A DNA stretch of 64,000 bases from Planctomycetota bacterium. Its GTDB lineage: Bacteria; JAJVIF01; JAPKYR01. The stretch's first letter is position 1. Each line of letters begins with the position of its first letter. Both the position numbers and the translations under genes were made by a program. Positions 4,411 to 47,505 of the stretch are shown here, one piece after another. The stretch is from NCBI GenBank assembly GCA_030614715.1, contig JAUWTM010000002.1, positions 17,334 through 81,333 of the forward strand, written 5' to 3'. Below the pieces are notes generated by a model. The model was not told the origin of the DNA. It saw nothing but the letters and a program-made list of their open reading frames with translations, and ran no database searches.

Positions 4411-4437
4411 AGAGGCAGCGGAGGTGAACGACTAAAC

Positions 4438-5295: not shown

Positions 5296-5346
5296 TCCGT
5301 TAGCCCATGTGTCGGTACTTCGACAGGAAGACCGGGTGATGAAATT

Positions 5347-6339: not shown

Positions 6340-6470
6340 TAAAAGGGATCATTTCTGACACACAGAAAGATACTATTATTATATAAACAGCTTTACGGCA
6401 TACAGTTATTTATCCTTGGCTGTCCGGACTGACACCGGGCATTAAGCACTCAAGGAGCCAGACTCGCCAG

Positions 6471-11201: not shown

Positions 11202-11257
11202 ATGCCCTGACCGGCACTGCTAAAGTTTGCCTTAGCACAATACGCCGAGGTGTAAAA

Positions 11258-11863
11258 GTGAAATATACGATAGCCAGATATTCCTTATTCCTCCTCCTGA
11301 TCCCGCTGTTGCTCTTCGGATGCGACAGGATTGGACCGGAGGACAAGTGGCCGGTTGTAGCTAACGTTACAGTTAACGCCAACCCGAACGTCACCCTTGA
11401 ATTCATCGAGGGTATCGGAGCACCCAGATTGACGGTCGGAAACCGGAACGTAGAGGTACAACTCGATGTGAGGAGCTTCAACGCCGGCCAGGAATGGAAA
11501 GTTACTACCTTCCTGGAAAGGGTAGATAGATACTGGACGACCTACGATGACAATCTCCCGGAAGCCTCTTTCAGTCAGAAAATTGCAATCCTTGAGAGCT
11601 TTTATACAGATCATATCGTGGGATCATACCAGGGTGGTCTTCCCCCCCAGGGAACCGTGAGGCTGACCGTTCACCTTGCCCTGGGCTGGTTCCCGGAGTG
11701 CATTGACGACTGGATTTCATACTCCATCATTGAAGACAAGTTCGTCATTCACTGGCTTACAGACAGGTATGTGTACTATTTCAGGACAGTAGTAGAGGAC
11801 CTGGAAGGTCGCAGCGATACCTTTACTTTTGAACTTTACAGCATACTTATAGTTGAGGATTAG
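11258..11863 (+). CDS. Lipoprotein of unknown function (possible secretin-associated factor)
   Basis: Lipobox LLLFG|C after a hydrophobic signal. GTG start preceded by GAGGTG. Lies immediately downstream of pilQ. Confidence 0.6.
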   Translation: MKYTIARYSLFLLLIPLLLFGCDRIGPEDKWPVVANVTVNANPNVTLEFIEGIGAPRLTVGNRNVEVQLDVRSFNAGQEWKVTTFLERVDRYWTTYDDNLPEASFSQKIAILESFYTDHIVGSYQGGLPPQGTVRLTVHLALGWFPECIDDWISYSIIEDKFVIHWLTDRYVYYFRTVVEDLEGRSDTFTFELYSILIVED

Positions 11864-11919
11864 TATTACAGCCTGAACAGAAGGAGTCAGGTAATAACAA
11901 CCATAGGAGAATAATCGCG

Positions 11920-13224: not shown

Positions 13225-13253
13225 TACACTGGAATACGGTTCGGAAAATACAC

Positions 13254-13281
13254 ACCCCCGGTGCTCAAATCCGGGGGATTT
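13254..13281 (+). terminator. Candidate intrinsic terminator
   Basis: CCCCCGG, 9-nt loop, CCGGGGG, then ATTTT, 30 nt after the stop of the 11920-13224 gene. Confidence 0.45.
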
Positions 13282-13297
13282 TACTAATTGAGGTGCG

Positions 13298-14395
13298 ATG
13301 ATGGTGTCCAGACTGGAAAAAGAACAGTCTGCCATGAGGGTGTTGAATGAGCTTGCGATCAGGATGGATAACTCTAATGCAAGCGATCTCCACCTTCAGG
13401 AGGGTGAACCGCCGGTCCTGAGGATCGTTTCCGGGCTTGCACCACAGACCGATCTGGAAATAGTTGATAACGCCATGCTTCGTATCCTGCTCGAAGGTTT
13501 CGTGGATCCTGAAGATCTGGAGGAGCTGGACAGGACTGGAGCACTTGACGCTGGCGTCCAGCTCCCGACGATGCGCCTGAGGATGGCTGCGTTCAAGCAC
13601 TCCGCAGGTCTCGCGATAAGCTTCAGGCGGCTTGCCCTTAAACCCCCAGGATTCCAGGAGCTTAACCTGCCTGCAATCATCAGTAAGTTTTCCAACCTGC
13701 CGCGAGGGCTCGTGATTTTCTGCGGACCCACCGGATGTGGCAAATCGACCACCGCTGCATCGCTTATAAATCTCATCAACAGCCAGCGTCGGACGCACAT
13801 CATTACGATTGAGGACCCGATCGAGTACATTCACCTGTCCAAATCGAGCCTCGTGGCTCAGCGTGAGGTCGGCAAGCATACTGAATCGTTCGCAGTCGCG
13901 CTGAGAGAGGCGTTGCGGGAGGATCCGGACGTCATACTCGTCGGAGAGATGAGGGACGCTGAGACGATCGCACTGGCGCTCAGGGCAGCTGAAACGGGAC
14001 ATCTTGTTTTCAGCACGCTGCACACATCTGGCGCGACCGGCAGCATATCGAGAATTATCGACGCCTTCGAGCCGGAGGCTCGCGGTACTATCAGAAGCCA
14101 GCTTGCGATGGTCCTGATGGGCGTGATCAGCCAGATCCTGTTCACGTCAACGGACGGTCAGCGGAGAATTCCGGTCTGCGAGGTGCTGGTGCCGAATGAC
14201 GCGGTCAGGCACCTGATACGGGAGGATAAACTCGAGCAGATTCCGAACATCATCCAGGCTGGTGGATCGGAGGGCATGATGTCTTTCGCATCACATATTA
14301 AGGAACTGACTAAGGCTGGCCTGATTGACGCTGCAGGCGGCCTTGAGGCCGTTGGCGAAAGCTGGCGGATTGCTGATATACTGTTCGAGAAATAG
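13298..14395 (+). CDS. pilT: Twitching-motility / pilus retraction ATPase PilT
   Basis: Walker A GPTGCGKSTT, Asp box ITIEDPIE, Walker B DPDVILVGEMRD, His box TGHLVFSTLHT, and the PilT-type motif AVRHLIREDK. Confidence 0.9.
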   Translation: MMVSRLEKEQSAMRVLNELAIRMDNSNASDLHLQEGEPPVLRIVSGLAPQTDLEIVDNAMLRILLEGFVDPEDLEELDRTGALDAGVQLPTMRLRMAAFKHSAGLAISFRRLALKPPGFQELNLPAIISKFSNLPRGLVIFCGPTGCGKSTTAASLINLINSQRRTHIITIEDPIEYIHLSKSSLVAQREVGKHTESFAVALREALREDPDVILVGEMRDAETIALALRAAETGHLVFSTLHTSGATGSISRIIDAFEPEARGTIRSQLAMVLMGVISQILFTSTDGQRRIPVCEVLVPNDAVRHLIREDKLEQIPNIIQAGGSEGMMSFASHIKELTKAGLIDAAGGLEAVGESWRIADILFEK

Positions 14396-15719: not shown

Positions 15720-17042
15720 TTATTTCCTGCTGGATGATTTCCTCTTTTTACGGATCTTTTTCGCAAACTTTTTAATTCCCTTCACCGCATTTACATGGAT
15801 GAGGTCAGCACTGGAGGGAGATCGCTCGAATGCAAACCTGCTTGCTGCCATGATCATTCGCGGGTAGGCATCCTTTGGGAAATTCGGGCGGGGCCTGGTG
15901 AGTTCATCCTCGATACGAAGCACTGTCGCGTGCTCCTTCGGTGAATACCTGATCAGGTCGATGAGGGAGTTATTGTTCAACACCTTGATCTTGCGGTCCA
16001 GCACGACATCGAGAAGCATGTTCATTGCGCGTGTGAGTTCATCGCGTGATATCCGGAACAGCTCCCTGTAGCCTGCAGCCGGGTCGAACCAGACATACTC
16101 CCTGATCCTCGGATGTATCTCGCTCCAGCGCAAATCAAGCTCCGCTGCATCCCCGGCAAATCCTATGCGTCTTAATACCTCCGTACAGATGCACACACGG
16201 AAATGACAAACCGGGTGTTTCATCATGTCCATGCCCTTTACGTCCCAGAGCGTTATGTGCGCTCCTCCAAGATCAGCTGCGATATCGCACGAATCCTCCT
16301 GGCGCGCCATCACGTACGCGGGTCCACCGAAAAGCGTGCCGATAATGTCTGCCATGGCCTCGTCCAGCCAGAAGGTCCAGATGATCTCCATCAACGCTGT
16401 CTTCGGAAGCCTGTAGGGAAGTCGCTTGCCGGGTATTTTAAACCTTTCGGTTGAGAGGTGGTTCCGGATCTTTTTCCCAAGCTCACGCTCGTAACCGATC
16501 ACGTTGTCGAAGATGTTATGGCCAATTTCATGCGGCAGGGCAAGCCAGTTCCAGACCGTGGTCGATCCCTTGCGGGGAATGGAAATCAATGCGATCGGGT
16601 GCTCGTGTGCATGAGTGTACGTGTAGTAATAGTCCTCGCTGTGACCGAGGAAAGTCAGCGGCAGGGCATCGACCGCGTACCTGCGATGTGTGCCCTTGAG
16701 AAGTGGCGAATCGAAAAACAGGCGGTAATAATCCTCACCGAGGATGTCCGTGAGTGTCAGAAGCTCGTTGTAGATCGCCATTTTTCGCTGGGTGATCAGG
16801 TTACGGTAACTGCGCCACAGGTGGAGGTCATCATCCTCGACACCGTGTTCCTCGAAATATTCAAGGACGTCGTCCCAGCGTTCGTTGTGACCTGCGAGGG
16901 TTTTGGTCTGCTTCGCGATCCTGACCCATCTGCGCACGTCGGCGATCTCGGCAGCGCCTTCACGCTCCTGTCCGATCTGCTTTAACTCGGAGATATCACC
17001 GAGATGAAACCGTGATGGTCGCGGTTTTCGAGGCATATTCAA
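15720..17042 (-). CDS. Cytoplasmic HExxH protein, putative gluzincin-like metallopeptidase
   Basis: LALPHEIGHNIFDNV (HExxH), with FWLDEAMADIIG about 55 aa downstream as a candidate third-ligand Glu. No signal peptide. Same strand as the paralog array and 80 nt downstream of it. Confidence 0.45.
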   Translation of the reverse strand: MNMPRKPRPSRFHLGDISELKQIGQEREGAAEIADVRRWVRIAKQTKTLAGHNERWDDVLEYFEEHGVEDDDLHLWRSYRNLITQRKMAIYNELLTLTDILGEDYYRLFFDSPLLKGTHRRYAVDALPLTFLGHSEDYYYTYTHAHEHPIALISIPRKGSTTVWNWLALPHEIGHNIFDNVIGYERELGKKIRNHLSTERFKIPGKRLPYRLPKTALMEIIWTFWLDEAMADIIGTLFGGPAYVMARQEDSCDIAADLGGAHITLWDVKGMDMMKHPVCHFRVCICTEVLRRIGFAGDAAELDLRWSEIHPRIREYVWFDPAAGYRELFRISRDELTRAMNMLLDVVLDRKIKVLNNNSLIDLIRYSPKEHATVLRIEDELTRPRPNFPKDAYPRMIMAASRFAFERSPSSADLIHVNAVKGIKKFAKKIRKKRKSSSRK

Positions 17043-17122: not shown

Positions 17123-19597
17123 CTATTCCGCTGGCGGTTCGATCCATATTTCCCACCACGTACGGGTGGTGCAGTCCGGAGCTGGTGGCGTGTTCAGCGG
17201 GAGATCTCCCCGAAGGACCAGCCCACCGTCGCCCGTCCTCTCGGCCGCTCCGAGCTGGTACGTCCATCCATATCCGAAGGTGAAAGGAATCGGCACGTAT
17301 GTTTCGTCGTGCTGATTGCATTCTGGCCAGTCAAAAATATTCAACATCTCCACCATTGATGGATCGGTCTGTACGATCATCGAAAAGTTACCATTTCCTT
17401 CTTCCTGTAATGTCACCCGGGCGAAGCCGGACCCGGTGTGATCCGCCCACTGCGACCCAAGGGATATATTGGGAGGTGGATGAGGTGTCTCGATGTGTTT
17501 CCATCCCCATGTGAACGGGTGGACGTAGGCTGCTGACGATGACGGTTCCTCGCTTTCGATTAATATCGTCTCCCACCAGTGATATTCGAGTGTGCTGAGT
17601 TCATCTGTACTCAGGCAGTAATTGTCGAACCTGATGAATCCCCGGTAGCAGTCGGGGTTGATCATATCGAAGTCGTCCGCAGGATCGAAGTTATCCGTTT
17701 CACTGGTCGCATTGCCGAGAAAACCGTCACGGTCGCCATCCTCGCAGCCGTCGATCATTCCGTCATTCCCCGGATGGTCGTTATCGGAGTCGAGTTCCTT
17801 CCATGCGCCGTCGCCGTCGATATCTCCCGGCCTCAGGTTCCATACACCATCGGGGTGGAATACGTAACCGACAATATCCTGCTTGTCTTTGACCCTGTCT
17901 GAGTCTGTATCGTCCTGATTCGGATCGGTGCCGAACCTCCACGTCTCATCGAAATCGACAATCCCGTCACCGTCGCTGTCCATTGTAATTTCAGCCTCGT
18001 CGGTCCTTGACGGGCTTCCGGTTGTCGGGGGGAAGAGCACGTTCGGATATGACGTCGATGTCGATTGCAGATCCTCCCATATTACCCCTGTCGATGCGGG
18101 ATCCAGAACACGCAGGTATGTCTCTGTTAAGTTGTCAGGACGTCGGATAATCTGGTATCCGTCGCAGACAACCGCGTGGCCCGGGACATACAGCATCACG
18201 GGACGGCCGTCGTCGAGAAATTCCTGGATCCTGTCCATTGGATCGGGAGTCCCGGTATTATCATGGAAAAGCTGGTTCGTAAGGCCGTAATGAGGTGCCT
18301 GGTGCGGTTGATTGTAGATCCAGTAGAGTCCGTAGTTTGCATCGATCCCGCGAATTCCCTTCCCGTGACCGAGATCGCCGATCGGGTCTCCGACATGTTG
18401 TGTTTCCGTTGCGGCCTGTGTCGATGCTTCCTCAAAAATGTAATACGAAATTCTGTCCTGTGACAGGTACCCCCCGAGAGACGCGATCATCGCGAGCGAT
18501 CCACGCACGCAGTATCCCGTTGCGTGACCGCAGCTGCTTTGAAAGGTCTGGTGGGCATCCCAGCAGTTGTTCATGTTGCACCCGTCAAGGCAGAGCATCG
18601 TTGTGTCGCGCCTTGCTAAATAATGAGTGCACCCGATGACTTTTTTCGAGACAGTCGTGTACTCCCCGAACAAGATCGGTCCGCCGCCTTTTGAAGCCAT
18701 CAGTTGACCTGAAGCGGTGCCCGATGTTGTATCAACGTCCGATTCAAAATCCATCCCGGTCATGACGAAGTGATACGTATCGCTCCATGGTCCGGGATCC
18801 GTCCTGCTTTCCCTCACACGCCAGTACCAGTCACCGGGACCCGGATCCTCAAGGTAGAGCGAGAATCCCTCGACCGATTCCTCGTAAACGACATCGGCAA
18901 AACCTTCATCACGTGCGACCTGGAAATCCACCATCTGCCAACGGTAATAACCGATCAGGTTCAATTCGACATGTGTTGTCGCGAGAAGTGCACCGTTGGT
19001 GGGTCTGAACATCGTTGGACCGGGTGGGGGGTTCGGCTCTCCTTCGGTCGCTGAATCGGAGGACCTGTACACCCAGTTTTCATTGCCTGGAACCGAAGTG
19101 TCCGGATCCCGGTAAAGCACAGAATCTGGTTCGAACAGCTGATCCTCCTCCATGATGATCCCGTAGAATGGCCAGATCGGAGCACCGGGATTCATCGCGT
19201 TTGCAGGCGGTTCGGGTGGATTTCCCCATGATACAGTGTCATAAACTCCCGCAGGACCGGATAACACGCACCCGTCACCGGCTGGATTGAACGGATTTCC
19301 GTTGATACCAAGTACGTGCAGTCCACCAGGGGGAACTTCAGTTGAACTGTCCTGGAATGTGAACGTATATCCGGAGAAAAGCAGGATTGTCCAGCCGTCG
19401 ATGGACACCGGACTGTCAGTCGGGTTGATGAACTCAATCCAGGTCTGCCCGTCGGAACCGAATGGACTGATTTCATTCAGCACAAGGGTTCCACCTGAAT
19501 CCTGTGCGTGCGTTTGATTACCATCGACAGGGACGAATCCCGGCAATATCAGTATGAGCAGCCCAACGATGAGCAGGATTTTGTATATTCGATTCAT
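17123..19597 (-). CDS. Secreted multidomain protein, array paralog P1 (LTD + beta-sandwich + C39-like peptidase-like + TSP3-like Ca repeats + C-terminal domain)
   Basis: Signal peptide MNRIYKILLIVGLLILILPG. LTD-like LVLNEISPFGSDGQTWIEFINPTDSPVSIDGWTI. DWYWRV motif. YCVRGSLAMIA / GHAVVCDGY / RVLDP. DSDGDGIVDFDE and DIDGDGAWKELDSDND repeats. Ends WWEIWIEPPAE. GGAGGA Shine-Dalgarno. Confidence 0.75.
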   Translation of the reverse strand: MNRIYKILLIVGLLILILPGFVPVDGNQTHAQDSGGTLVLNEISPFGSDGQTWIEFINPTDSPVSIDGWTILLFSGYTFTFQDSSTEVPPGGLHVLGINGNPFNPAGDGCVLSGPAGVYDTVSWGNPPEPPANAMNPGAPIWPFYGIIMEEDQLFEPDSVLYRDPDTSVPGNENWVYRSSDSATEGEPNPPPGPTMFRPTNGALLATTHVELNLIGYYRWQMVDFQVARDEGFADVVYEESVEGFSLYLEDPGPGDWYWRVRESRTDPGPWSDTYHFVMTGMDFESDVDTTSGTASGQLMASKGGGPILFGEYTTVSKKVIGCTHYLARRDTTMLCLDGCNMNNCWDAHQTFQSSCGHATGYCVRGSLAMIASLGGYLSQDRISYYIFEEASTQAATETQHVGDPIGDLGHGKGIRGIDANYGLYWIYNQPHQAPHYGLTNQLFHDNTGTPDPMDRIQEFLDDGRPVMLYVPGHAVVCDGYQIIRRPDNLTETYLRVLDPASTGVIWEDLQSTSTSYPNVLFPPTTGSPSRTDEAEITMDSDGDGIVDFDETWRFGTDPNQDDTDSDRVKDKQDIVGYVFHPDGVWNLRPGDIDGDGAWKELDSDNDHPGNDGMIDGCEDGDRDGFLGNATSETDNFDPADDFDMINPDCYRGFIRFDNYCLSTDELSTLEYHWWETILIESEEPSSSAAYVHPFTWGWKHIETPHPPPNISLGSQWADHTGSGFARVTLQEEGNGNFSMIVQTDPSMVEMLNIFDWPECNQHDETYVPIPFTFGYGWTYQLGAAERTGDGGLVLRGDLPLNTPPAPDCTTRTWWEIWIEPPAE

Positions 19598-19621
19598 GAT
19601 TCCTCCAAAATAAACTGGTTC

Positions 19622-22198
19622 TCAGTCTGACGGACCTACCAGGATCCTCCACCAGAGGACGTTATCGACAAACGGCAGGTCCGCTCCGCCAAGCACGATA
19701 TCAAGGTTAACCTCACCCTCGAACAGTAGTCCGTCTGCGGTTTCAGTTGGCGTGCCGAGATCGAACTCGGTATTGCCTGCGAATCCGAAATGGGACGGCA
19801 CAGTTATTATTCGTGAGCTCGGATTCGGTCCGGCGAAGATTCCCGATGGATTGAACGGGTATTGAAAGTTTCCCCACATGGAATCTACATCGGTTACAAG
19901 TGTGTACGTGCCCAGCTCTTCATTAATCAAAAGTGATACCTTTGCTCCGCCAAGCCCGAAGTCCTCGTTACCACCGGATGCCAGAGTAGACTGCAAACTG
20001 GTCATCCTCCCGAATCGATGCAGGTGCGAGAACGTGCCGGAATTAAGCTCACCAGTTGCAAGTATTATCTCCTCGTACCACACCTGGTCGTGCGAACCGC
20101 CGTCGGGAAGCGGTACACGCATGATGTGATCTCCCCTGATGATGCCGGAGAAGCAGTCGGGATTTATGACATCGAAATCGTCACCCGCTGTGAAATTATT
20201 GGTCTCTGTTCCGTTGTCGACGAAAAACCCATCGTGATCCGTATCCTCACACCCATCGGGTGAGCTCCTGTTATCCCTGTCATCGTTATCCGGGTCCGAT
20301 TCCTTCGCCGCACCGTCGTTATCCATGTCGATCGGCTTCGGATCGTACCAGCCGAGACGGTCAAACAGGTATCCGACCATGTCCAGCATATCCGGGATGC
20401 CGTCGCGATCGGTATCTTCGTTGTCCGGATCGGTTCCGAACCGGTTAATTTCATCGAAGTCATACAGTCCGTCGTTATCGGAATCCTCGTGAACCTCCGG
20501 TTCATCCTCTTTTACCGGAATGCCGTTCTGTGGAGGAAAGATGAAAGCTCCGAACTCGGAGGATTCGTAGTCCTCCCAGTAAATCGCTTCATCGTCCTCG
20601 GTAAACGATGGATTTACTATCCTGATGAACCGCCTTTCGTGGCCTTCCTCAAGGAAATGAATCGCGCCGTCGACAACTGTCTGATGATCATCGTAGCTGC
20701 GTATCAGGGGGATGCCCAGTTGTATGTACTCGACAATCGAATCGATTGCGGCGGTCTCGTTCGCGAATAGATCGTCGGAGTAATATTTTATCTCCGACGA
20801 TCCCAGCGGCTGCTGGTAGATCCAGTCGAGCGCGACCGCTGTTTCATCCCTCGTGAAGCCGTAGCCATGACCCAGATCGCAGAACGGATCATCGAAATGC
20901 CCGTCCGGGATCGGTGTCGGACCTCCTGCACCGAGTTCCTGAAATATAAAATACGAAATCCTGTCCTCGCTTAGCTGGTTTCCGAACATGCACGCGATCA
21001 TTGCACACGATGCACGTCCGCAGTAATGCTTGTTGTGCCCCCCGACCCTGGCTCCATACGGGTGTTCGATGTCCCATGCGTACGTCCCGCCCATCGTGCA
21101 GCCGTCAAAACACACCATGTGCGTGTCCTTCATCTGGAACTTGTGCGGGATATCGAGTTCGTAGGCGTCGATGATGAAAAGATCCTCATCTGACTTGGTC
21201 TGCGCAAGATAAGTGTCCGAAATCCGCATCGATGTGCCGGTCCTGCTGCGGAAATCCTCAACCATCCCCTCGAGATCGTACTCCTCGATGGTAAATATCT
21301 GGTAGTCACTCCAGCGAAGCTGAATTCCGTTGATCCATGCCTTTACGCGCCAGTAGTACGTCCCGGGTGCGAGGTCCCTGATGGGATACGTGTCAGTCTG
21401 TACTGTTTCTTCGATAACGACATCCACAAATCCTTCGTCAGTTGCTATCTGGAATGTAATCTGGTCGGCCCAGGCCATATCTGTTACGCCAAGCGGGAAA
21501 TCAGAAGCCATCCGTGCTCCGTCGGACGGAATCATTCTCCACGGACCAACGATATTTGTGGCACTTGCCGGAGTTGCCTGGGTATGACTGCGATAGACCC
21601 ATTTATCCGATCCGACCCAGCTTAAATTCCCACCTGAAATGTCAGGGTTGATCCTGATCAGCACATCGGTTGGATTGAACAGCTCTCCTTCCGAAGGTCT
21701 TGAATCGTACGGTGGCCGTAATGGTGCTCCGGGTGCTATTGGATAAATAATATCTGTCGGGGGATTACCCCACGTTATGATGTCTATTACTCCGCCGGGT
21801 GCGACAAGCATACAGCCGTCGCCGGTTTGCCCAGGGTTTACTATCTGCGCCGTTTCAGTTATTACATTTTGGACTTCTGCCCTTAAGCCACCCTCTGGTG
21901 GATTTCCGAATATAATCAGGATCGTATCGCCACCGGAGCATTCAAAGCCTTCGGGAATCTCGTATTCAAAACCGGACAGGAATCTCAGTGACCAGCCGGA
22001 CAGTGAAATGGCATGAATAGTTGGATTGATTAACTCGACCCAGACTCCGCCATCGCCGGGCCACGGTCCGAGTTCGTTGAGTATCAGCATTCCCCGACCT
22101 GAGCCCGGTTGCGATTCCGCATCCTGCGCGTGATGTACGTCCGGCAGGACAAGTACAAAACATGTAAATATCATCGTCCAGGCGATTATCCGGTACAT
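19622..22198 (-). CDS. Array paralog P2 (same architecture)
   Basis: Signal peptide. LILNELGPWPGDGGVWVELINPTIHAISLSGWSL. TYYWRV. YCGRASCAMIA / DHQTVVDGA / RIVNP. DSDNDGLYDFDE and DTDRDGIPD repeats. Ends LWWRILVGPSD. GGGAGGA Shine-Dalgarno. Confidence 0.75.
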   Translation of the reverse strand: MYRIIAWTMIFTCFVLVLPDVHHAQDAESQPGSGRGMLILNELGPWPGDGGVWVELINPTIHAISLSGWSLRFLSGFEYEIPEGFECSGGDTILIIFGNPPEGGLRAEVQNVITETAQIVNPGQTGDGCMLVAPGGVIDIITWGNPPTDIIYPIAPGAPLRPPYDSRPSEGELFNPTDVLIRINPDISGGNLSWVGSDKWVYRSHTQATPASATNIVGPWRMIPSDGARMASDFPLGVTDMAWADQITFQIATDEGFVDVVIEETVQTDTYPIRDLAPGTYYWRVKAWINGIQLRWSDYQIFTIEEYDLEGMVEDFRSRTGTSMRISDTYLAQTKSDEDLFIIDAYELDIPHKFQMKDTHMVCFDGCTMGGTYAWDIEHPYGARVGGHNKHYCGRASCAMIACMFGNQLSEDRISYFIFQELGAGGPTPIPDGHFDDPFCDLGHGYGFTRDETAVALDWIYQQPLGSSEIKYYSDDLFANETAAIDSIVEYIQLGIPLIRSYDDHQTVVDGAIHFLEEGHERRFIRIVNPSFTEDDEAIYWEDYESSEFGAFIFPPQNGIPVKEDEPEVHEDSDNDGLYDFDEINRFGTDPDNEDTDRDGIPDMLDMVGYLFDRLGWYDPKPIDMDNDGAAKESDPDNDDRDNRSSPDGCEDTDHDGFFVDNGTETNNFTAGDDFDVINPDCFSGIIRGDHIMRVPLPDGGSHDQVWYEEIILATGELNSGTFSHLHRFGRMTSLQSTLASGGNEDFGLGGAKVSLLINEELGTYTLVTDVDSMWGNFQYPFNPSGIFAGPNPSSRIITVPSHFGFAGNTEFDLGTPTETADGLLFEGEVNLDIVLGGADLPFVDNVLWWRILVGPSD

Positions 22199-22231
22199 CG
22201 AATTCCTCCCTTATTCCCTGTCAGCCATGTC

Positions 22232-22375
22232 TCAATCCTCATCGAATGGTACCTGCAGCCAGATTTCCCATGTAATTGTGGCAGTTGCGCCCATCGACTG
22301 CATGGATGCCTCGTGTTCCTGAATCTGCGATGGTGATCCTCCTGGTCCGATAAAGCTCTCGTATCCATAGAGGTC
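22232..22375 (-). other. In-frame 47-codon extension after the P3 TGA, encoding the family's conserved C-terminal tail
   Basis: Hand translation in the P3 frame after the TGA gives DLYGYESFIGPGGSPSQIQEHEASMQSMGATATITWEIWLQVPFDED, then TGA at 22232-22234. This aligns with the P4 tail ...RGFIDVFTGFDPSSG...SIISWEIWIQSPETYVRSN. Confidence 0.7.
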
Positions 22376-24817
22376 TCAGACTCCGCGAAGGACAAGCCCG
22401 CCGTCCGGTGTTGTCACGGGTTGCCCGATACGCTCAGGCGTGAAGGCAAACTGGTGAAGATAGATCGGTAATGTCTGGGTCTGATGGGTCGTACTGCCAA
22501 GGGCGTTAATTTCTATCTCCATGTCTACCTGGTCTGGATTGGTGTCAACATCAAGGATGTAGTTGCCGGACTCGTCAGTAGTCAGCTCAACCCTGGCAAA
22601 GCCATCACCGTGCGTGTTCCCTGATCCCGCACCATATTCTGTGCCCAGCATAACGACGCCAAAGCAGAAGTTAATATTCCAGTTGAATGAGTGCACATAG
22701 TCCTCACCGAATAGGCTGTCACCGCCGTCGAGTATCACTTCTTCCCACTGGTCGGGACAGTAATCCGATGTCACGTAGTACCTGATGTAACCCTGCATGC
22801 ACTCAGGATTTGTTACAGATCCATCGTCCGACGCATCGAAATTACTCGTCTCCAGGCCATTGAAATTCATGAACCCATCGTGATCGGCATCTTCGCAGCC
22901 GTCGATTGTCCCGCTGTCGTCCGCATTGTCATTGTCGGGATCGAGTTCCTTGGCATCGGTGTCCCCATCGAAATCCGGGTGAGTAAGCAGCCACGTTCCA
23001 TTGCGAAGGAAAACGTACCCAAGGACATCCTGCTTATCGTTTACGCCGTCCCCGTCGGTGTCCACATCCTGTGGGTCGGTATTAAAACGGGTGGTTTCAT
23101 CGAAGTCGTTCAACCCGTCTCCGTCTGAATCCAGCGCGATTGAGGATTCATTACTTCGTATGGGCGTCGTGTTTTCGGGCGGGAAGATGAATGCATCGAA
23201 AGCATTAATAGTGGACTCCAGGGTGAACCATCGACCTGCAGCGGAGATCCATGGATCTTCGACCCGAACGTAATGAACGGTTATATTGCCAATTTTTTCA
23301 ACGATTGCGTAACCGGAAATAAGCGTTGCGTGTCCACTTCCACAGCGCATTACGGGAGTTCCAGCGTCGATGTATCTCTTGATGCGTGCCATGATCCCCG
23401 GTATATCGGTCGGTGCTGCTCCCGTGTGAGTAAGCTGCGATGTTGATCCCATGGGCTTGTTGTAAAGCCAGTCGATCGCAGCCCTTGAATATGAGCGGCC
23501 CGTCCCCCTGCCATGCGCAAGATCGTCGATCGGGCTATAGATCCATTGCGGTTGATTAGGATTGGAGAGAAAATGCCAGAGCTCTTCGAACATGTAGTAC
23601 GTTATCCGGTCCTGACTCAGCGTGAGTCCGCTGTTTCCCGCTATCATCGCTATACATGCACGTGCGCAATATGCGTTTCCATGACTGCACGTTGACCTTG
23701 TACCGCCTGCCAGCGGAGGATCTCCGTGATTGTCGTCCCAGTCGCAGCTGTCAGCCATATTACAACCCATCAGGCAGACCATCGACGTGTCCTTGAACTG
23801 CATGATATGGGGACAGTTGTTGAGCAGCGCTGATGACGTGACATCATCATCCCAGCCCAGTATCAGACCCGGTGGTTGTTTTCCTTCCTTGCCATCCGCG
23901 AGCCTGATTTCCGAGCTTCCGGACACAACGATCAGATCTTCTATATCGTACGGCTCGCGAGTAAACGACATCGCAGGTGACCAGCCTCCATCTTCACCCA
24001 TCACACGCCAGTAGTACGTACCGGCTTCCAGTCTGGTAATCGTGTATGAGTGTACCTCAACAGTTGCATCAATAGTTACATCCTGGAAATTCACGTCACG
24101 TGCCACCTGGAAGGTTGTCGATCCGGACCACTCGATGCCGACTACGTACAGCTCGAACTCTGACGCGACATAAGCTCCATCGGGAGGTGAGTACCGTACC
24201 GGTGGAGGGTAGGGATTCTGCTCTCCGCGACTTGCTGCATCCGAACCCCTGTAAGCCCAATGTTCAGACCCGATCCAGTTACCTGCATTGGGAGGCCATG
24301 TGTCCGGAATTCTGAAAATTATATCGTCGGGATTATGGATGTCCTCTTCATCGTCGTATTCAGGCATGAACGGCCATAGCGGATCACCCGATGACACCGA
24401 TCCAGGATCTGCCGGTGTTGGATTTCCCCAACTGATGGTGTCAGTGACTCCGTCCGGACCGGATAACGTGCACGCATCGCCATCGGGATTTAATGGATTG
24501 TCGCCGGAAATTCCGAGTACGTGCAGCCTGCCTGGTTCGATCTCTCCCGCTCCTGACGGGAACGTGTACTCGAATCCTGACCGAAACCTGATCGTCCAGC
24601 CGTCGAGTTCGACCGTTGACCGCGTTGGATTGAGAAGTTCCACCCAGACCTGCCCATCGGACGGCCATGGGCTGATTTCATTCAGGATCAGGTCGCCATC
24701 GCCTGCCTGCGCGTACGCAGTGTCTGTCAGGTTGATATTTATTATCGAGACAGGTGACCCCGGAAGTCCTGACAACAGCGCCGCTGTAATAATCAACCAG
24801 GTTAGTATCCGATACAC
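22376..24817 (-). CDS. Array paralog P3, terminated by an in-frame TGA before the conserved C-terminal strand
   Basis: GTG start with GAGGAG Shine-Dalgarno. LILNEISPWPSDGQVWVELLNPTRSTVELDGWTI. TYYWRV. YCARACIAMIA / GHATLISGY / RVEDP. DSDGDGLNDFDE and DTDGDGVNDKQD repeats. Ends ...GGLVLRGV at TGA 22376-22378, roughly 45 aa short of its closest paralog P4. Confidence 0.75.
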   Translation of the reverse strand: MYRILTWLIITAALLSGLPGSPVSIININLTDTAYAQAGDGDLILNEISPWPSDGQVWVELLNPTRSTVELDGWTIRFRSGFEYTFPSGAGEIEPGRLHVLGISGDNPLNPDGDACTLSGPDGVTDTISWGNPTPADPGSVSSGDPLWPFMPEYDDEEDIHNPDDIIFRIPDTWPPNAGNWIGSEHWAYRGSDAASRGEQNPYPPPVRYSPPDGAYVASEFELYVVGIEWSGSTTFQVARDVNFQDVTIDATVEVHSYTITRLEAGTYYWRVMGEDGGWSPAMSFTREPYDIEDLIVVSGSSEIRLADGKEGKQPPGLILGWDDDVTSSALLNNCPHIMQFKDTSMVCLMGCNMADSCDWDDNHGDPPLAGGTRSTCSHGNAYCARACIAMIAGNSGLTLSQDRITYYMFEELWHFLSNPNQPQWIYSPIDDLAHGRGTGRSYSRAAIDWLYNKPMGSTSQLTHTGAAPTDIPGIMARIKRYIDAGTPVMRCGSGHATLISGYAIVEKIGNITVHYVRVEDPWISAAGRWFTLESTINAFDAFIFPPENTTPIRSNESSIALDSDGDGLNDFDETTRFNTDPQDVDTDGDGVNDKQDVLGYVFLRNGTWLLTHPDFDGDTDAKELDPDNDNADDSGTIDGCEDADHDGFMNFNGLETSNFDASDDGSVTNPECMQGYIRYYVTSDYCPDQWEEVILDGGDSLFGEDYVHSFNWNINFCFGVVMLGTEYGAGSGNTHGDGFARVELTTDESGNYILDVDTNPDQVDMEIEINALGSTTHQTQTLPIYLHQFAFTPERIGQPVTTPDGGLVLRGV

Positions 24818-24844
24818 GTGTGTTCTCCTCGTTACTGTTCCTTG

Positions 24845-27454
24845 TTAGTTTGATCTGACGTACGTTTCAGGTGATTGAATCCAGATTTCCCACGATATGA
24901 TCGAGGACCCGCCTCCACCGGCTCCTGCGAGTGGGTCGAATCCCGACGGAGTGTTTGGCGTGGTCTGGCCGCTCATGTACTGACCGCTGCTTGGATCGAA
25001 CCCTGTGAAAACATCGATGAAACCCCTGAAAACCCATCCCCCGTTGGCATTTTCCTCGGGTTGACCCAGCTCATGCGGCTCCAGGTACCAATTGTGGAGT
25101 GACAGGGGGGCTGTTTCGTCAAAAGTACCGGATTCGCTGCCGATTGTGTACTCGGTCGTTGCTATGATCTCTGTTGGCTGTGTGTCTATATACAAATAGA
25201 AACCTCCATTGGCATCTCTTTCGAGTTTCAGCTCAGCAGCACCCTCTCCCTGGTGATGTGTATAAGAGGAAATATACGAAGTACCGGCCAGGCTGGTGAT
25301 CAGGCATCCATGAAAATCCCAGCTGTATGAGTGGACATAGCCGTCACCTGCAAGGTTATCCATTCCATCGATGTCGATTCTTTCCCACGTGTCGGGACAT
25401 GCACTGCCCTGTGTAAGCCTGTATTCGATCCAGCCGCCGCTGCACTGGGGATTTACGACAGTTCCATCATCGGATGAATCGAAATTGGATGTCTCCTGCC
25501 CGTTCGCCTCGAAGAAACCGTTATGGTTTGCGTCCTCGCAACCATCTACAGTGCCGTCATCTGCAGCATTATCGTTGTCAGGGTCGTCTTCCTTCCTGTT
25601 GCCATCGCCGTCGATATCAGGATCGGTCAGAAGCCATTGTCCATCGGGCATAAAAACGTAACCGAGTATATCCTCAAGATCCTTGACTCCGTCGCTGTCG
25701 GTGTCGTCGTCATTCGGGTCCGTTTTAAACCTGTTGATCTCGTCGAAATCGTTCAATCCATCGCTGTCCGAGTCCATCCCGATCTCCGCCTCATCGCTGC
25801 GGATCGGGCTTCCGGTGGGGGGAGGGAATAAGTACTTTTTATATGTATCGATGGTGGTTTCGAGCAGCAGCCACCTGTGAGGTGTGTTGATCCAGGGATC
25901 CTCGATGCGCAGGAAATGCACATCGACCCCGCTGGTCTTCCGGATCACTGCGTAGCCAGATACTATCGTTGCATGTTTACCGCTGCACCTGAGAACAGGT
26001 GTTCCAGCATCGATAAACTGCTTTATCTTTGCGAAAACACCGTCCAGATCGTTCGGTGCTGTGTTGTTATACTTCATCACGGTGCTTGCACCTGAGCTCT
26101 GGCCGTACAACCAGTCCAGGGTGAGTAGAATCGGTGTCGTGCCTGTACCCCGCTTGTGCCCCAGATCATTTATCGGGCTGTTCAGGTGTGTAGCTTGAGT
26201 TGCACTCGTGTACGTCTGCCACATTTCCTCGAACTGGTAATATGAAATCCTGTCCTGGCTTATGCTCTTCCCTCCGGCACCGGCGACCATTGCGATCGAT
26301 GCACGTGTGCAATAGCTGTTACCATGCTCGCACGTCGGTCTGGCTCCGCCTGCGAGTGGAGGGTTGTTATGATTGTTATCCCACGGGCACATCGGCTCGA
26401 TGTCGCATCCCATCAGGCAGACCATCGTTGTGTCCTTGTACTGCATGATGTGCGGACACGTTGTTACAATCCTCGAGGATGTAATGACATCGCCTCCGGC
26501 GAGGGGAACTCCTGCAGTTGCTCCACCACCCTTGTTGTCTGCGAGAAACAACCCATCTTCCCGGGCTGCGGTTATTACTTCTTCCAGATCGTACGGTTCC
26601 CGTGTGAACTCCAGCGGCTGCGACCATTCCCCGTCGGAACCGCCTCGTACGCGCCAGTAATAGGTCCCGGCATCAAGGTTATCAAGATGCAGCGTGTCAC
26701 CGTACACTTCCTGCTCAACAACAATGTCCTGGAATCCCGAATCACGGGCAATCTGGAACGTGATGGAATCAGCCCATTCGAGCCCGACAGCAGTCAGATC
26801 GACATCCGATGCGAATACTGCACCGTCAGGTGGCGATGTCCGTACAGGTGGTGGCATCGGATTCGTGCTTCCCCTGCTTGACGCGCTGGAATCCCGGTAA
26901 GCCCAATGCTCAGAGCCAAGCCAGGATGATTCCCCGGGTGGCCATGTGTTCGGAATTCGCATGATCACATCGTCGGGTAAATGTAGTGGCTCGTCGTCAT
27001 CATGCATCGGGGCGAACGGAACCAGCGGTTCACCTGCCGATAACGGTGCTCTTGAGTCGAGGAAAGGCAGGCCCCACTGGATAACATCGATAACACCATC
27101 CGGACCACTGAGTATGCAGCCGTCGCCGTCTTGATCCAGCGGATTTTCGCCTGATATCCCGAGCACATGAAGATTACCGCTGCCTATGTCGCCGGAATTA
27201 GCAGGAAATGTGTACTCGAAACCTGACAGGAACTCGATCGTCCAGCCATCGAGTTCCACAGAACCGCTTGTAGGGTTGATTAGTTCAACCCAGACGCTGC
27301 CGTCCGACGGAAACGGACTGATCTCATTTAGTAACAGGTAACCTCCTCCCGTCTGCGCTGACGTCCCGGGTATTACCCCGGTACGTTCAGGCGCCCCGGT
27401 AAGCAGGAGTGACATAATTATTGTCGTGAAAAGGAAAGCGATCGACCGATGCAT
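24845..27454 (-). CDS. Array paralog P4 (same architecture)
   Basis: Preferred start is ATG 27454 (MHRSIAFLFTTIIMSLLL), preceded by AAGGAGGAG. The track ORF starts 27 nt further upstream. LLLNEISPFPSDGSVWVELINPTSGSVELDGWTI. TYYWRV. YCTRASIAMVA / KHATIVSGY / RIEDP. DSDSDGLNDFDE and DTDSDGVKD repeats. Ends SWEIWIQSPETYVRSN. Confidence 0.75.
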   Translation of the reverse strand: MHRSIAFLFTTIIMSLLLTGAPERTGVIPGTSAQTGGGYLLLNEISPFPSDGSVWVELINPTSGSVELDGWTIEFLSGFEYTFPANSGDIGSGNLHVLGISGENPLDQDGDGCILSGPDGVIDVIQWGLPFLDSRAPLSAGEPLVPFAPMHDDDEPLHLPDDVIMRIPNTWPPGESSWLGSEHWAYRDSSASSRGSTNPMPPPVRTSPPDGAVFASDVDLTAVGLEWADSITFQIARDSGFQDIVVEQEVYGDTLHLDNLDAGTYYWRVRGGSDGEWSQPLEFTREPYDLEEVITAAREDGLFLADNKGGGATAGVPLAGGDVITSSRIVTTCPHIMQYKDTTMVCLMGCDIEPMCPWDNNHNNPPLAGGARPTCEHGNSYCTRASIAMVAGAGGKSISQDRISYYQFEEMWQTYTSATQATHLNSPINDLGHKRGTGTTPILLTLDWLYGQSSGASTVMKYNNTAPNDLDGVFAKIKQFIDAGTPVLRCSGKHATIVSGYAVIRKTSGVDVHFLRIEDPWINTPHRWLLLETTIDTYKKYLFPPPTGSPIRSDEAEIGMDSDSDGLNDFDEINRFKTDPNDDDTDSDGVKDLEDILGYVFMPDGQWLLTDPDIDGDGNRKEDDPDNDNAADDGTVDGCEDANHNGFFEANGQETSNFDSSDDGTVVNPQCSGGWIEYRLTQGSACPDTWERIDIDGMDNLAGDGYVHSYSWDFHGCLITSLAGTSYISSYTHHQGEGAAELKLERDANGGFYLYIDTQPTEIIATTEYTIGSESGTFDETAPLSLHNWYLEPHELGQPEENANGGWVFRGFIDVFTGFDPSSGQYMSGQTTPNTPSGFDPLAGAGGGGSSIISWEIWIQSPETYVRSN

Positions 27455-27593
27455 ATTTTCTCCTCCTTCAATAAAACTCAATGCTCGATTAATAGGTTGC
27501 GATTAGTACAACCCATGATCAGGATGGCTGAATCGTTATTGCGCTTTGTACCCTCTACCTAACAGCGTGTAGAACAATTATGTATTTTCTGTT

Positions 27594-27665
27594 GTGGGGC
27601 AGACTTTCCAGTCTGCCTCTTCAAAATTTATATTATATTCTGGCAGACAGGAATGTCTGCCCCAC
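27594..27665. repeat. REP-like inverted pair of GGCAGAC hairpins
   Basis: GTGGGGCAGACTTTCCAGTCTGCC (27594-27617) and TGGCAGACAGGAATGTCTGCCCCAC (27641-27665) are inverted copies of each other, each an internal hairpin, separated by an AT-rich 23-mer. They lie in the P5-P4 intergenic region. Confidence 0.7.
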
Positions 27666-27690
27666 ACGGATTCTGGTCATTTCTACAGAC

Positions 27691-30366
27691 CTAACGTCCC
27701 GGGAGACGGTCGAGTCTGAATTCCCACGTCCTTATTGTCTCGCCGGAGCAGCCGACGAGGAAGGACGGTATCGGGATGATATCCTCACCTTTCGCGATCC
27801 GGACTCCGTCCGGCGTTCTGGTGACGGTTCCATTGAACAGGTTCCCCCCGCCGACCGATTCCAGCCATGCCATAACCTCTGCAGGGGTCTCCGAGGACAC
27901 GTAATCGAAATGATGATCGGCAAGACCGAGATGGATCTGCTCGGTTCTGAGATTGTGCACTCCCGGTCCGAACGTCTCAATCGTGTAAGTCCCGACACGC
28001 GGGTTGGTGTCGGTGACTATCGTATAACGGCCACCCTCGTGCAGCGTGAGTTGAACGCGTGCCAATCCTTCGCCGTATCCCTCCGCGATTGTGACAATCG
28101 ATCCTCCCGGGACAGGCATGGACATTCCATCCATCACAAGTTCCCAGTAGTAATCATGGCTGTAGTCGCCGGTGCTTATAATTGCACCCGGCTCGATGGT
28201 AATCACCTCGCGCACACGCAAGGGAACTGTCGGGAATGCAGGATGATAAATAGTGCTGTCGATCGTGATCGTACCCTCGTTGCAGTACGGATTCATCACG
28301 TTACCGTCGTCGCTGCCATCGAATTGATCCGTCTCGCGACCGCCGGGGGTCAGGAAGCCGTCGAGATCGTAGTCCTCGCAACCGTCGGTCACTCCGCTGT
28401 TGTCAGCCGTGTCGTTATCGGGATCGAGTTCCTTCCAGATATCATCGCCATCGATATCAGGGTCCCTCTCGTGATATGAGCCGCTTGGATCGAACAGATA
28501 ACCAAGTATATCCGTTTTATCGTCAAGGCCGTCATCATCGGAATCCCTGTCGTTCGGATCGGTCCAGAACCTTTCCACTTCATCGAAATCGACAAGACCA
28601 TCACCGTCAGAATCCTGCCTGATCGTGGATTCATCAGATCGCTGAGGAAAACCGTTTGGTGGCGGGAATTCGATGAATCGCGTATCGTCCTCGCCGATCG
28701 ATTCCCATTGAATATCACCCGGCACCCACGGATCGAGTACGTGCACATAATTTGTGGTACCACCGCTCCAGTCGACTATGGCGTAACCATCCAGCAATGT
28801 GGCGTGAGTGTCGGTGCGACGCTGGATGTCACGTAGGACCGGACGGCCATCGTCAATGAATTCCTTGATTGAATCCATGTCCGATGGGTCTCCGTCGTCG
28901 AACACGGTCGAGGACCATGTTCTAGACACCGCTCCGGGTGCGCCGTACAGCCAGTCAAGGATCTGGCAGATGTCCTGGTCCGAAAGTCCCCGGTCATGGC
29001 CGAGGTCACCGCGCGGATCATCGGGATGACCTGCACGTGTCTTTGCCTGCGACGATCCTATTTCCTGAAAAATGTAGTACGAAACGCGGTCCTGGCTGAG
29101 TGTACGTCCCGCGATCCCCGCTATCATCGATGTGCACGCTCTCGCGCAATATATATCCTTGTGCCCGCCCTCCATCGAGGATCCAATCGGATGCGGACCG
29201 TCCCACGGGTAAGTCCCGCTCATAGTGCAGCCGTCGATGCACACCATGTCGGTATCTTTTCGCTGTTGAAGGTGCGTCGCTCCAAGTACACGCCACTCCC
29301 GGCAAACCTCCGATGCTGCCAGGCGGAGTCCGGGTGGTCCGCCCTTGGCTGAGCTTGCCAGACGATCCGGCTGCAGGTTCAGCAGTTGCGATGTGCCGTA
29401 GCCTGATGTCTCTCCGTTCAGAAGGTCGTTCAGGTCGAACGGCTCTTTTGTGAATTGCCGGACAGGAAACCATGGCTGGGCGACACCTGAATCATCGATT
29501 CCCTGTGCACGCCAGAAGTACGTTCCTGAAAGCAGGTTATCGACGAAGAAATATGGTGTCTCGACCGTTGCTTCAACAAGGATCTCGGAGAAGTATTCAT
29601 CCTCAGAGATCTGGAAATAAAATTCCGCCGCCCAGTCGACCCCCATCACCACCAGGTTGAAATCAGATGCGAGCCGTGCACCGTCCGCCGGACGCATTCC
29701 TAGCGGTCCGGGTGGGGGGTTCGGCAGGCCGGGACTTGCATCTTCCATACCGCGTATGGTCCAGAAATATGATCCGATGTATTCAGCGTTGCTTGGAGGC
29801 CATGTGCCGGGCAGACGCATGCAGACGTCACCGGGAAGATACAGTTCAGTGCCTTCATGAATGACCTCAACATCGGGTCGAAGTGGTGAACCGGGAGCGA
29901 AAGGGAGGTTTACAAAACCACCGTCCGGATTTCCCCACGACAGGACATCGGTTGGTCCATCGGGCCCGATCAGCACGCATCCGTCACCTTCGGGAGGAAA
30001 ACCTGATGATCTCGCGATATCTACATGGACCGTGTTGCCCTGCAGCGATGCTTCATCCGTTAGTTGCGGGTCGATCCTGATCAGCACGAAGCCGTTGGGA
30101 GGGCAGTCGGGTGCATCCTGGGGCAGCGCTATGGCCTGTGCTGTAATGAATTGTATCGACCAGCCCGAAAGTGGGCAGGGATCGCCTGCAGGATTGTAAA
30201 GCTCGACCCATGCAGCTCCATCTGACTGCCACGGACTGATCTCACTCAGGATAAGGTAACCACCTGGATTGGCATGGACGGCGGGTACAGGGGAAGGACC
30301 CTGGGATGTTGAAATGATCGTAAAAATGCAAAGGGTAAACAGAAATAATACAGCATATCGCCCCAT
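27691..30366 (-). CDS. Array paralog P5 (same architecture)
   Basis: Signal peptide MGRYAVLFLFTLCIFTIIS. LILSEISPWQSDGAAWVELYNPAGDPCPLSGWSI. TYFWRA. YCARACTSMIA / THATLLDGY / HVLDP. DSDGDGLVDFDE and DSDDDGLDD repeats. Ends TIRTWEFRLDRLPGR. Confidence 0.75.
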   Translation of the reverse strand: MGRYAVLFLFTLCIFTIISTSQGPSPVPAVHANPGGYLILSEISPWQSDGAAWVELYNPAGDPCPLSGWSIQFITAQAIALPQDAPDCPPNGFVLIRIDPQLTDEASLQGNTVHVDIARSSGFPPEGDGCVLIGPDGPTDVLSWGNPDGGFVNLPFAPGSPLRPDVEVIHEGTELYLPGDVCMRLPGTWPPSNAEYIGSYFWTIRGMEDASPGLPNPPPGPLGMRPADGARLASDFNLVVMGVDWAAEFYFQISEDEYFSEILVEATVETPYFFVDNLLSGTYFWRAQGIDDSGVAQPWFPVRQFTKEPFDLNDLLNGETSGYGTSQLLNLQPDRLASSAKGGPPGLRLAASEVCREWRVLGATHLQQRKDTDMVCIDGCTMSGTYPWDGPHPIGSSMEGGHKDIYCARACTSMIAGIAGRTLSQDRVSYYIFQEIGSSQAKTRAGHPDDPRGDLGHDRGLSDQDICQILDWLYGAPGAVSRTWSSTVFDDGDPSDMDSIKEFIDDGRPVLRDIQRRTDTHATLLDGYAIVDWSGGTTNYVHVLDPWVPGDIQWESIGEDDTRFIEFPPPNGFPQRSDESTIRQDSDGDGLVDFDEVERFWTDPNDRDSDDDGLDDKTDILGYLFDPSGSYHERDPDIDGDDIWKELDPDNDTADNSGVTDGCEDYDLDGFLTPGGRETDQFDGSDDGNVMNPYCNEGTITIDSTIYHPAFPTVPLRVREVITIEPGAIISTGDYSHDYYWELVMDGMSMPVPGGSIVTIAEGYGEGLARVQLTLHEGGRYTIVTDTNPRVGTYTIETFGPGVHNLRTEQIHLGLADHHFDYVSSETPAEVMAWLESVGGGNLFNGTVTRTPDGVRIAKGEDIIPIPSFLVGCSGETIRTWEFRLDRLPGR

Positions 30367-47495: not shown

Positions 47496-47505
47496 AGAAG
47501 TTACA

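Follow-up and report, generated by a model that had tools for sequence, protein, structure and literature searches.

A tandem array of five diverged genes for lamin-tail, C39-like and calcium-loop proteins in an uncultured Planctomycetota bacterium

The C39 domains of PCAT1, ComA and LahT (PF03412) are cytoplasmic papain-fold peptidase domains, which are located N-terminally on ABC exporters and cleave double-glycine (GG) leaders. Peptidase_C39_2 (PF13529), a family of clan CA, includes mostly uncharacterised bacterial and phage proteins. A domain resembling these families was found in five consecutive genes (P1 to P5) at 17123-30366, on the minus strand, of a 64,000-nucleotide (nt) stretch, hereafter called the window, of a Planctomycetota bacterium (assembly GCA_030614715.1, contig JAUWTM010000002.1, positions 17,334 to 81,333 of the forward strand). 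The encoded proteins have 824, 858, 813, 869 and 891 amino acids (aa), and P5 is the most upstream. When the coordinates and sizes were re-checked, all five open reading frames (ORFs) listed in an earlier reading made from the letters alone (the sequence-only reading) were recovered.

PF13529 was the best profile match of the central domain, running from the Cys helix to the DP motif (positions ~10-143 of 143). Compared with PF13529, the P1-P5 family has an insert of ~30 residues between a conserved Gln and the Cys, the family-specific core motifs LSQDR and DPxGDLGH, and a constant fusion to five Ca loops. The canonical C39 domains share the papain fold, and their motifs xCGxASLAM, NHFVVLxGF and NDP align with the P1-P5 family. 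However, P1-P5 are multi-domain proteins of ~850 aa with their own predicted signal peptide and no transporter, and they fall outside PF03412 sensu stricto. The His-to-Asp spacing is 25 residues in the P1-P5 family versus 16 in canonical C39.

Other described systems share the fold or single modules. UfSP1 and UfSP2 (C78; E 1e-4, template modelling (TM) score ~0.5) and AvrRpt2 (C70; TM 0.51/0.62) were the top structural matches, at 14-17% identity and with no significant sequence relationship. These are cytosolic eukaryotic deUFMylases and a type III effector, and they have no Ca loops, lamin-tail domain (LTD) or Cys-rich insert. Calpains (C2) provide a functional analogy only, as papain-fold Cys peptidases coupled to Ca2+-binding elements; the m-calpain core matched in part, over 110 columns with a root-mean-square deviation of 4.3. 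Calpains use penta-EF-hands and core Ca sites, whereas P1-P5 have DxDxD loops of the TSP3-like type; there is no sequence homology, and Ca2+ dependence of P1-P5 is putative. The Shewanella nuclease ExeM has, like P1-P5, a signal peptide and an N-terminal LTD followed by a hydrolase, but its catalytic part is a nuclease (OB fold and EEP). Extracellular DNA degradation in vivo does not require the LTD of ExeM, which was suggested to direct the protein to the membrane, and the role of bacterial LTDs is unresolved (PMC6085458). The bacterial TSP3 proteins (PF18884; Myxococcus CglD, NF033765) share the repeat motif alone (16 vs 400 bits for CglD).

We consider it probable that P1-P5 are a repertoire of exported, Ca2+-stabilised papain-fold cysteine peptidases, which would constitute a distinct C39-like subfamily with variable targeting domains. 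All five proteins have the same order of domains, as listed below together with the core residues (CTD, C-terminal domain).

17123-19597, minus strand: P1, 824 aa; LTD 35-190, FN3-like 191-282, C39-like 312-525, Ca loops 526-650, CTD 651-824; core residues A328 (replacing the conserved Gln), C363, H474, D499
19622-22198, minus strand: P2, 858 aa; LTD with an insertion 35-215, FN3-like 216-307, C39-like 339-557, Ca loops 558-682, CTD 683-858; core residues Q355, C393, H505, N529
22376-24817, minus strand: P3, 813 aa as called; LTD 40-202, FN3-like 203-290, C39-like 324-548, Ca loops 549-673, truncated CTD 674-813; core residues Q340, C384, H496, D521
24845-27454, minus strand: P4, 869 aa; LTD 37-199, FN3-like 200-288, C39-like 322-546, Ca loops 547-671, CTD 672-869; core residues Q338, C382, H494, D519
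27691-30366, minus strand: P5, 891 aa; predicted signal peptide, LTD 35-217, FN3-like 218-310, C39-like with the Cys/His-rich insert 352-570, Ca loops 571-695, CTD 696-891; core residues Q368, C407, H521, D545

The central domain was supported as a papain-fold, C39-like peptidase domain. PF13529 was matched in 16 of the 18 family members scanned singly (best E 2e-10), and a few of them also matched C10, C70 and C39 (C70 weakly in 2/18; PF03412 in 1/18, E 0.023). Distant relatives, retrieved by the family profile at E<=1e-40, scored 25-38 bits against the PF13529 cut-off of 24. The membership of P1-P5 in Peptidase_C39_2 thus appears to hold via transitive homology and not from the window sequences alone. 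P2 was the only copy with no C39_2 match of its own, yet it keeps all the conserved residues. The model of the central domain had a predicted local distance difference test score (pLDDT) of 79 and a predicted TM-score (pTM) of 0.81. Its Foldseek matches in the PDB were UfSP1/2 (E 1e-4 to 3e-3), m-calpain, ZUFSP, staphopain, the PCAT1 C39 domain (prob 0.97) and falcipain, and the sole significant match in the viral library was an AvrRpt2-like C70 protease of phage (TM 0.51/0.62). The top Foldseek matches were all clan CA peptidases, with no comparable score from a non-peptidase fold, so that the profile and structure searches led to Peptidase_C39_2 and papain-fold peptidases only.

Residue conservation was counted over 164 locally aligned domain instances. 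It was high for the Cys (157/158), His (157/159), Asp/Asn (158/159) and Gln (150/154), and the Cys, His and Asp/Asn are kept in all five window copies. In the P1 model a helix begins exactly at C363, H474 opens the strand 474-485, and D499 comes just after the strand 491-498; this modelled placement is that of papain-fold enzymes. A broadened profile of 21 sequences aligned YCxRASxAM with ECGAASLAM, and H..V.DGY...DP with NHFVVLKGF...NDP, of the solved LahT and ComA C39 domains. We take these LahT/ComA motifs to be the catalytic motifs of C39 domains. PDB profile searches with the full-length alignment and with the 18-sequence central-domain alignment returned nothing useful. The sequence-only reading had proposed the Cys...His...Asp order and context of C39-like papain-fold peptidases; the residues that it picked are the conserved ones, and Pfam and Foldseek agree with it. 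The Gln-to-Cys insert contains C-x3-C, an invariant Trp and a conserved His, and is possibly a metal or disulfide knuckle.

The full-length AlphaFold2 model of P1 (pLDDT 80.7, pTM 0.74) showed two beta-sandwiches, a disordered linker (288-308), a mixed alpha/beta domain (~312-525), an Asp-rich region (526-650) and an all-beta CTD (651-824), in this order. A lamin-tail-like domain had been proposed, and the Pfam LTD (PF00932) was matched in 5/5 proteins. P1 (38.2 bits) and P3 (46.0) were above the cut-off of 34.3 bits, and P4 (33.7), P2 (33.0) and P5 (26.0) were below; the LTD region of these three was aligned and homologous throughout with that of P1 and P3, and it is all-beta in the P1 model. 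Foldseek with the full-length P1 model gave only tandem FN3/Ig-type matches (receptors). This result fits an LTD and FN3-like pair, specifying as FN3-like the beta-sandwich that had been noticed after the LTD, and is uninformative on the CTD.

The Asp-rich region of P1 was well predicted with little regular secondary structure. P1 and P2 each have five DxDxD loops, the loops of P3-P5 show additional DxDxD starts that overlap, and the Asp residues of the loops were invariant in 18 homologues. The best score for TSP3_bac (PF18884) was 20.7 bits (P3) against a cut-off of 25 bits, with the DxDxDGxxDxxE motif present, and NCBIfam gave far sub-threshold repeat matches only (CglD and BamM). These loops agree with the TSP3-like calcium repeats described earlier, and Ca2+ binding is predicted for them.

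The CTD has ten long strands in the P1 model (651-824). Mean identity among P1-P5 was 0.57 in the Ca loops, 0.51 in the LTD, 0.39 in the C39 domain and 0.26 in the CTD. The CTD type of P5 was common to copies from Desulfobacteraceae, Deltaproteobacteria, Thiodiazotropha and LacPavin metagenome-assembled genomes (MAGs), at 32-43% identity. A profile search of Pfam and the PDB with the CTD returned no relative. PADLOC-DB defence models gave no match (0) for P1-P5 and for a 440-aa gene downstream.

At the gene level, a Shine-Dalgarno sequence (GGAG/GGAGG) was located 6-9 nt before the start codon in 5/5 genes, in line with the strong individual sites that had been reported. P3 starts with GTG and has GAGGAG upstream. 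For P4, the ATG gives 869 aa with AGGAGG 7 nt 5' of it, and an upstream TTG gives 878 aa. The N-termini of P1-P5 have a basic residue (early Arg), a hydrophobic run of 12-17 residues and an A-x-A-like cleavage site (THA/Q, HHA/Q, AYA/Q, TSA/Q and VHA/N across the five copies). In the P1 model, residues 2-17 formed a helix followed by a low-confidence linker. These N-termini are signal-peptide-like, and secretion is predicted from them. Pairwise identity among P1-P5 was 33-52% end to end (BLASTP E 1e-120 to 0). P3 and P4 were the closest pair at 52%, as expected from the strong P3/P4 similarity noticed earlier, and the motifs quoted at that time were all present in the five-protein alignment.

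Several observations weigh against reading P1-P5 as exported peptidases. The window copies scored below the PF13529 cut-off of 24 bits (P1 16.1, P2 none, P3 12.5, P4 22.2, P5 19.1), the TM-scores to solved peptidases were modest (0.4-0.5), and the profile alignments to the solved C39 domains were not significant (E 0.27-2.3). The conserved Gln, a putative oxyanion-hole residue, lies 35 residues before the Cys and not ~6 residues before it, and the insert between them was modelled with low confidence (pLDDT ~50-75). P1 alone among the five has Ala (A328) at the Gln position. The signal peptides were judged by eye from the sequence. Furthermore, the CTD has no detectable homologue, and its putative targeting role is drawn only from how variable it is and from the swaps seen in other family members.

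For the favoured reading, exported cysteine peptidases, the following mechanism is proposed. Sec export would place P1-P5 outside the cell or in the periplasm, and the LTD and FN3-like pair would act as a spacer, positioning or anchoring module. The constant catalytic core would comprise the Gln, the Cys/His-rich insert, the nucleophile Cys at the N-terminus of a helix, and the His and Asp/Asn on a beta-hairpin; for this core, peptidase activity is predicted rather than another acyl-transfer chemistry. The five DxDxD loops adjoining the core would bind Ca2+ and fold or regulate the catalytic domain. The fast-evolving, exchangeable all-beta CTD would most likely set the bound target, and VWA, PKD or dockerin modules may take this targeting role in relatives.

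The size and spread of the family were examined in several collections. A word-indexed search of 5.8 billion proteins yielded 16 relatives only, two of which are named generically at NCBI, as 'lamin tail domain-containing protein' and as 'C39 family peptidase'. The exhaustive profile search of 1.84 billion cluster representatives reached 634 proteins with E<=1e-3, of which 498 had E<=1e-10. Judged by these profile counts, the subfamily is small and well separated from the bulk of C39_2. Literature searches returned no paper combining LTD with C39. The earlier view that no characterised family has this domain combination therefore stands, as the database and literature searches found no characterised member. 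The P1-P5 family is real, rare and uncharacterised, and it is built of known domain types.

A scan of GTDB species representatives gave 46 loci, all in MAGs. They span Desulfobacteraceae, a Deltaproteobacteria bin, several Planctomycetota, Phycisphaerae, Ca. Thiodiazotropha, many Anaerolineae/Chloroflexota, Cloacimonadota and unclassified bacteria. Nearly all 46 loci combined the C39 domain with the Ca loops; the LTD/FN3 N-terminus was detectable mainly in the closer loci, and the CTD rarely. Distant members have VWA and a galactose-binding-like domain, PKD/Ig, dockerin, or NosD/beta-helix modules after the Ca loops instead. The MAGs 'uncultured bacterium binner23' and 'Planctomycetota CSMAG_1386' carried the same four paralogs, near identical, on separate short contigs (loci L016 (980-3433), L013, L012 and L018 vs L014, L015, L006 and L007). 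This suggests that the two MAGs are the same species and that assemblies break at the LTD-C39 gene family.

A neighbour-joining tree built on the C39-TSP3 core placed the window copies in different deep clades with copies from other phyla, and P3/P4 was the sole local pair. The lineages of the window copies were common to Planctomycetota and Desulfobacterota MAGs, and one Planctomycetota-type genome pair contained at least four paralogs on separate contigs. The nearest relative (L002/L003) has the same slot, with flanking proteins 73-86% identical, and it holds two family genes and an unrelated 387-aa gene, which is not a family fragment. The two copies of the relative are at most 41% identical to any of P1-P5 and are non-orthologous. 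Because the copies fall in separate deep clades and the slot of the relative differs, the array is read from these sequences as an assembly of old lineages with differential retention, and not as a recent burst. A recent local expansion was ruled out by the tree, which supports the old, since diversified duplications that had been suspected.

Per-domain identities were incongruent. P1 and L016, from a Planctomycetota-like MAG, shared 61% identity in the CTD, 55% in the LTD, 41% in the peptidase core and 34% in FN3, and L002a shared 53-60% with P3/P4 in LTD/FN3 and 33-35% in the core. These sequence comparisons point to cassette exchange or strongly uneven rates. A further-reaching proposal, which we consider doubtful, is a contingency-like repertoire: a conserved chromosomal slot with 2 to 5 ancient mosaic paralogs, in which extracellular Ca2+-gated peptidases of a hitherto undescribed class would exchange recognition cassettes (the CTD and partly LTD/FN3) among paralogs and phyla. 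If true, it would let the cell recognise and cleave shifting targets such as surface proteins of competitors or prey, phage components or matrix proteins.

The same exported proteins could be bacteriolytic or cell-wall-remodelling enzymes, in which the C39-like domain would cut peptidoglycan stem peptides or cross-bridges, the role presumed for C39_2 domains annotated in phage endolysins, and the CTD would bind the target wall. Peptidase_C39_2 is counted as a catalytic domain class in several endolysin surveys, and the apparent export and the variable, binding-type C-terminal domains would suit this function. However, the one endolysin match in the viral structure search had E 0.46, in contrast to the significant match of the AvrRpt2-like protease. 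Wall-binding domains such as SH3b, LysM or PG_binding were not found in P1-P5 or the relatives scanned, and the 634 proteins reached by the family profile are distinct from the bulk of C39_2. Therefore, a bacteriolytic role is unlikely.

Abundant adhesin-type modules (LTD, FN3-like and TSP3 loops; VWA, PKD and dockerin in relatives) raise another explanation, that P1-P5 are non-enzymatic surface or matrix adhesins whose papain-fold domain binds, with the array serving antigenic or adhesive variation. The loss of the conserved Gln in P1 and the premature stop in P3 are in its favour. However, the Cys, His and Asp/Asn were kept in at least 99% of the 164 domains from many phyla, which is unexpected for pseudo-enzymes and makes this explanation quite improbable.

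The slot shared with the nearest relative is flanked by a 2-oxoacid:ferredoxin oxidoreductase operon on one side, and by the 440-aa gene with a HEIGH motif, a glycosyltransferase and a PilT-like ATPase on the other side. The following feature belongs to this surrounding.

2607-14395, plus strand: type IV pilus-like cluster with PilM, three unannotated small genes, an AMIN+Secretin protein and the PilT-like ATPase

The AMIN+Secretin protein (6471-11201) is unusually large at 1576 aa, and the PilT-like ATPase is located at 13298-14395. The architecture was found elsewhere, but no shared neighbour was found beyond the closest relative: the HEIGH gene, the glycosyltransferase and the pilus genes co-occur with the family in the nearest relative alone, and a conserved partner gene was thereby rejected. 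The context thus gives no partner or substrate.

The adjoining pilus-like cluster would suit an acyl-transferase, transglutaminase-like or transpeptidase-like, that joins proteins outside the cell (such as components of the matrix or the pilus) by cross-links, and transglutaminases share the papain fold with a Cys-His-Asp triad. However, no transglutaminase was among the top 50 structural matches, and the Pfam matches were C39_2, C10, C70 and C39, with Transglut_core not among them. The pilus neighbourhood was kept in the closest relative alone and not in the other 40-plus loci. A cross-linking enzyme is consequently very improbable. Least probable of all are dedicated maturation proteases for one exported partner, for example with a double-glycine-type leader: the motifs around the Cys, His and Asp resemble double-glycine peptidase domains, but P1-P5 have no ABC transporter domain within them or transporter gene beside them, their own predicted signal peptides imply action outside the cytoplasm, no gene co-occurs across loci, the flanking intergenic regions contain no convincing small precursor ORF, and a set of five diverged copies whose CTDs vary is easier to reconcile with many targets than with one.

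The LTD-C39 subfamily is distinctive for its active-site insert, its obligatory Ca module and its copy-number-variable mosaic array. If active, its members would form a distinct subfamily of papain-fold peptidases acting outside the cell, scattered widely over Planctomycetota, Desulfobacterota, Chloroflexota and candidate lineages, all uncultured. With the unusual catalytic-site insert and the obligatory calcium module, the subfamily would then be the functional counterpart, in bacteria, of calcium-coupled cysteine proteases. The array, mosaic and variable in copy number within a conserved slot, would be a tractable case of secreted enzymes diversifying their target recognition via cassette swaps. 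The MAG names of several relatives suggest sampling of anoxic sediment, and the family is a candidate for extracellular protein turnover in such sediments, a process poorly assigned to enzymes. Practical gain would be modest until a substrate is identified.

P3 as called stops at an in-frame TGA (22376-22378), before the W-E-I-W-I strand. The C-terminal domain ending in a W-E-I-W-I-like strand, which the sequence-only reading gave to all five proteins, was thus confirmed as a domain, but P3 as called ends before that strand. The frame continues past the TGA as follows.

22232-22375, minus strand: in-frame continuation of P3, 47 sense codons DLYGYESFIGPGGSPSQIQEHEASMQSMGATATITWEIWLQVPFDED, then TGA at 22232-22234

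The continuation (...ATITWEIWLQVPFDED) includes the conserved terminal strand TWEIWLQVP and aligns with the tails of P4 and of the homologue P0004. Because the frame continues into this conserved strand, the 177-nt "spacer" 3' of P3 is the tail of the gene itself. The ancestral spacers from P5 to P1 are therefore 236, 27, 33 and 24 nt, the long/short alternation vanishes, and the gene pairs once suggested by it were an artefact of the nonsense-truncated P3.

No SECIS-like (selenocysteine insertion sequence) hairpin was found 3' of the P3 TGA (z = -0.78), and TGA is an ordinary stop in neighbouring genes and elsewhere in the window. The TGA is therefore either a recent nonsense mutation or a consensus error. 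Selenocysteine or programmed read-through was rejected on these two grounds and because the site aligns to Ile or variable residues, not to Cys. The only other assembly with this TGA, L001, repeats the same sequence (1 mismatch over 20,134 nt) and is no independent confirmation of the stop. Four further ORFs overlap P3-P5, three of them on the opposite, plus strand (151-299 aa; 24288-24848, 26324-26881 and 27580-28479) and one on the same strand in another frame (29018-29473, minus); they are most likely spurious.

The spacer between P5 and P4 contains one structured element.

27593-27667, minus strand: stem-loop directly 3' of the P5 stop, within the 236-nt P5-P4 spacer, with two copies of GGCAGAC-N6-GTCTGCC

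The palindrome copies (27598-27617 and 27642-27661) are nested in a longer stem with a fold of -48.8 kcal/mol (z = -8.0), and none of 200 shuffles (0/200) was equally stable. The motif was found nowhere else in the window (0.02 expected), and the double palindrome was absent from 49 other loci. The equivalent spacer of the relative also has strong GC hairpins, of different sequence. The element is probably a terminator, attenuator or mRNA-stabilising element, and it suggests that P5 is set apart from the tightly packed P4-P3-P2-P1 block. A promoter-like CAGACA-16-TATAAT (27659-27632) overlaps the stem-loop; promoter-like sites in the region were not above chance, and scans for promoter and terminator consensus sequences did not exceed chance level. 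The Rfam scan of the whole window gave no match.

The host genes include PilM and PilT homologues and ferredoxin-dependent, anaerobe-type metabolism, and the host is presumably diderm because a secretin is encoded. The PNPase (44836-47142, minus strand) was 66-78% identical to unnamed metagenomic proteins, and identity dropped abruptly to ~53% for the nearest named ones (Bacillota and others). The host represents a deep lineage, uncultured and with no named close relative.

The 440-aa ORF (15720-17042, minus strand) lies 80 nt downstream of P1. It contains HEIGH and, ~55 residues later, WLDEAMAD, a gluzincin-like metallopeptidase signature, and its sequence may represent an undescribed metallopeptidase family. 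It had no Pfam, NCBIfam-type or PADLOC match and no obvious signal peptide, and it is 86% identical to the ortholog of the syntenic relative. Outside this nearest relative it does not co-occur with the LTD-C39 family.

A second paralog array (53162-62082, minus strand) encodes three proteins of 962, 952 and 964 aa that resemble lipoproteins (LVGC lipobox) and have LVIVD repeats or PKD and beta-propeller repeats. Between the 962- and 964-aa copies, identity is 53% overall and >90% over the first ~130 residues, and the 25 nt upstream of the two genes are the same. The N-terminal motif FDV[KR]GI.MFDGS of this array is shared by the 387-aa gene of the relative. A region at ~47500-49800 has a GC content of 0.37 versus ~0.53 elsewhere and encodes an ASCH-domain protein (47506-48558) and a dCTP-deaminase-like protein (48617-49729). 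This low-GC island may have been acquired horizontally and could include a nucleotide-depletion defence gene.

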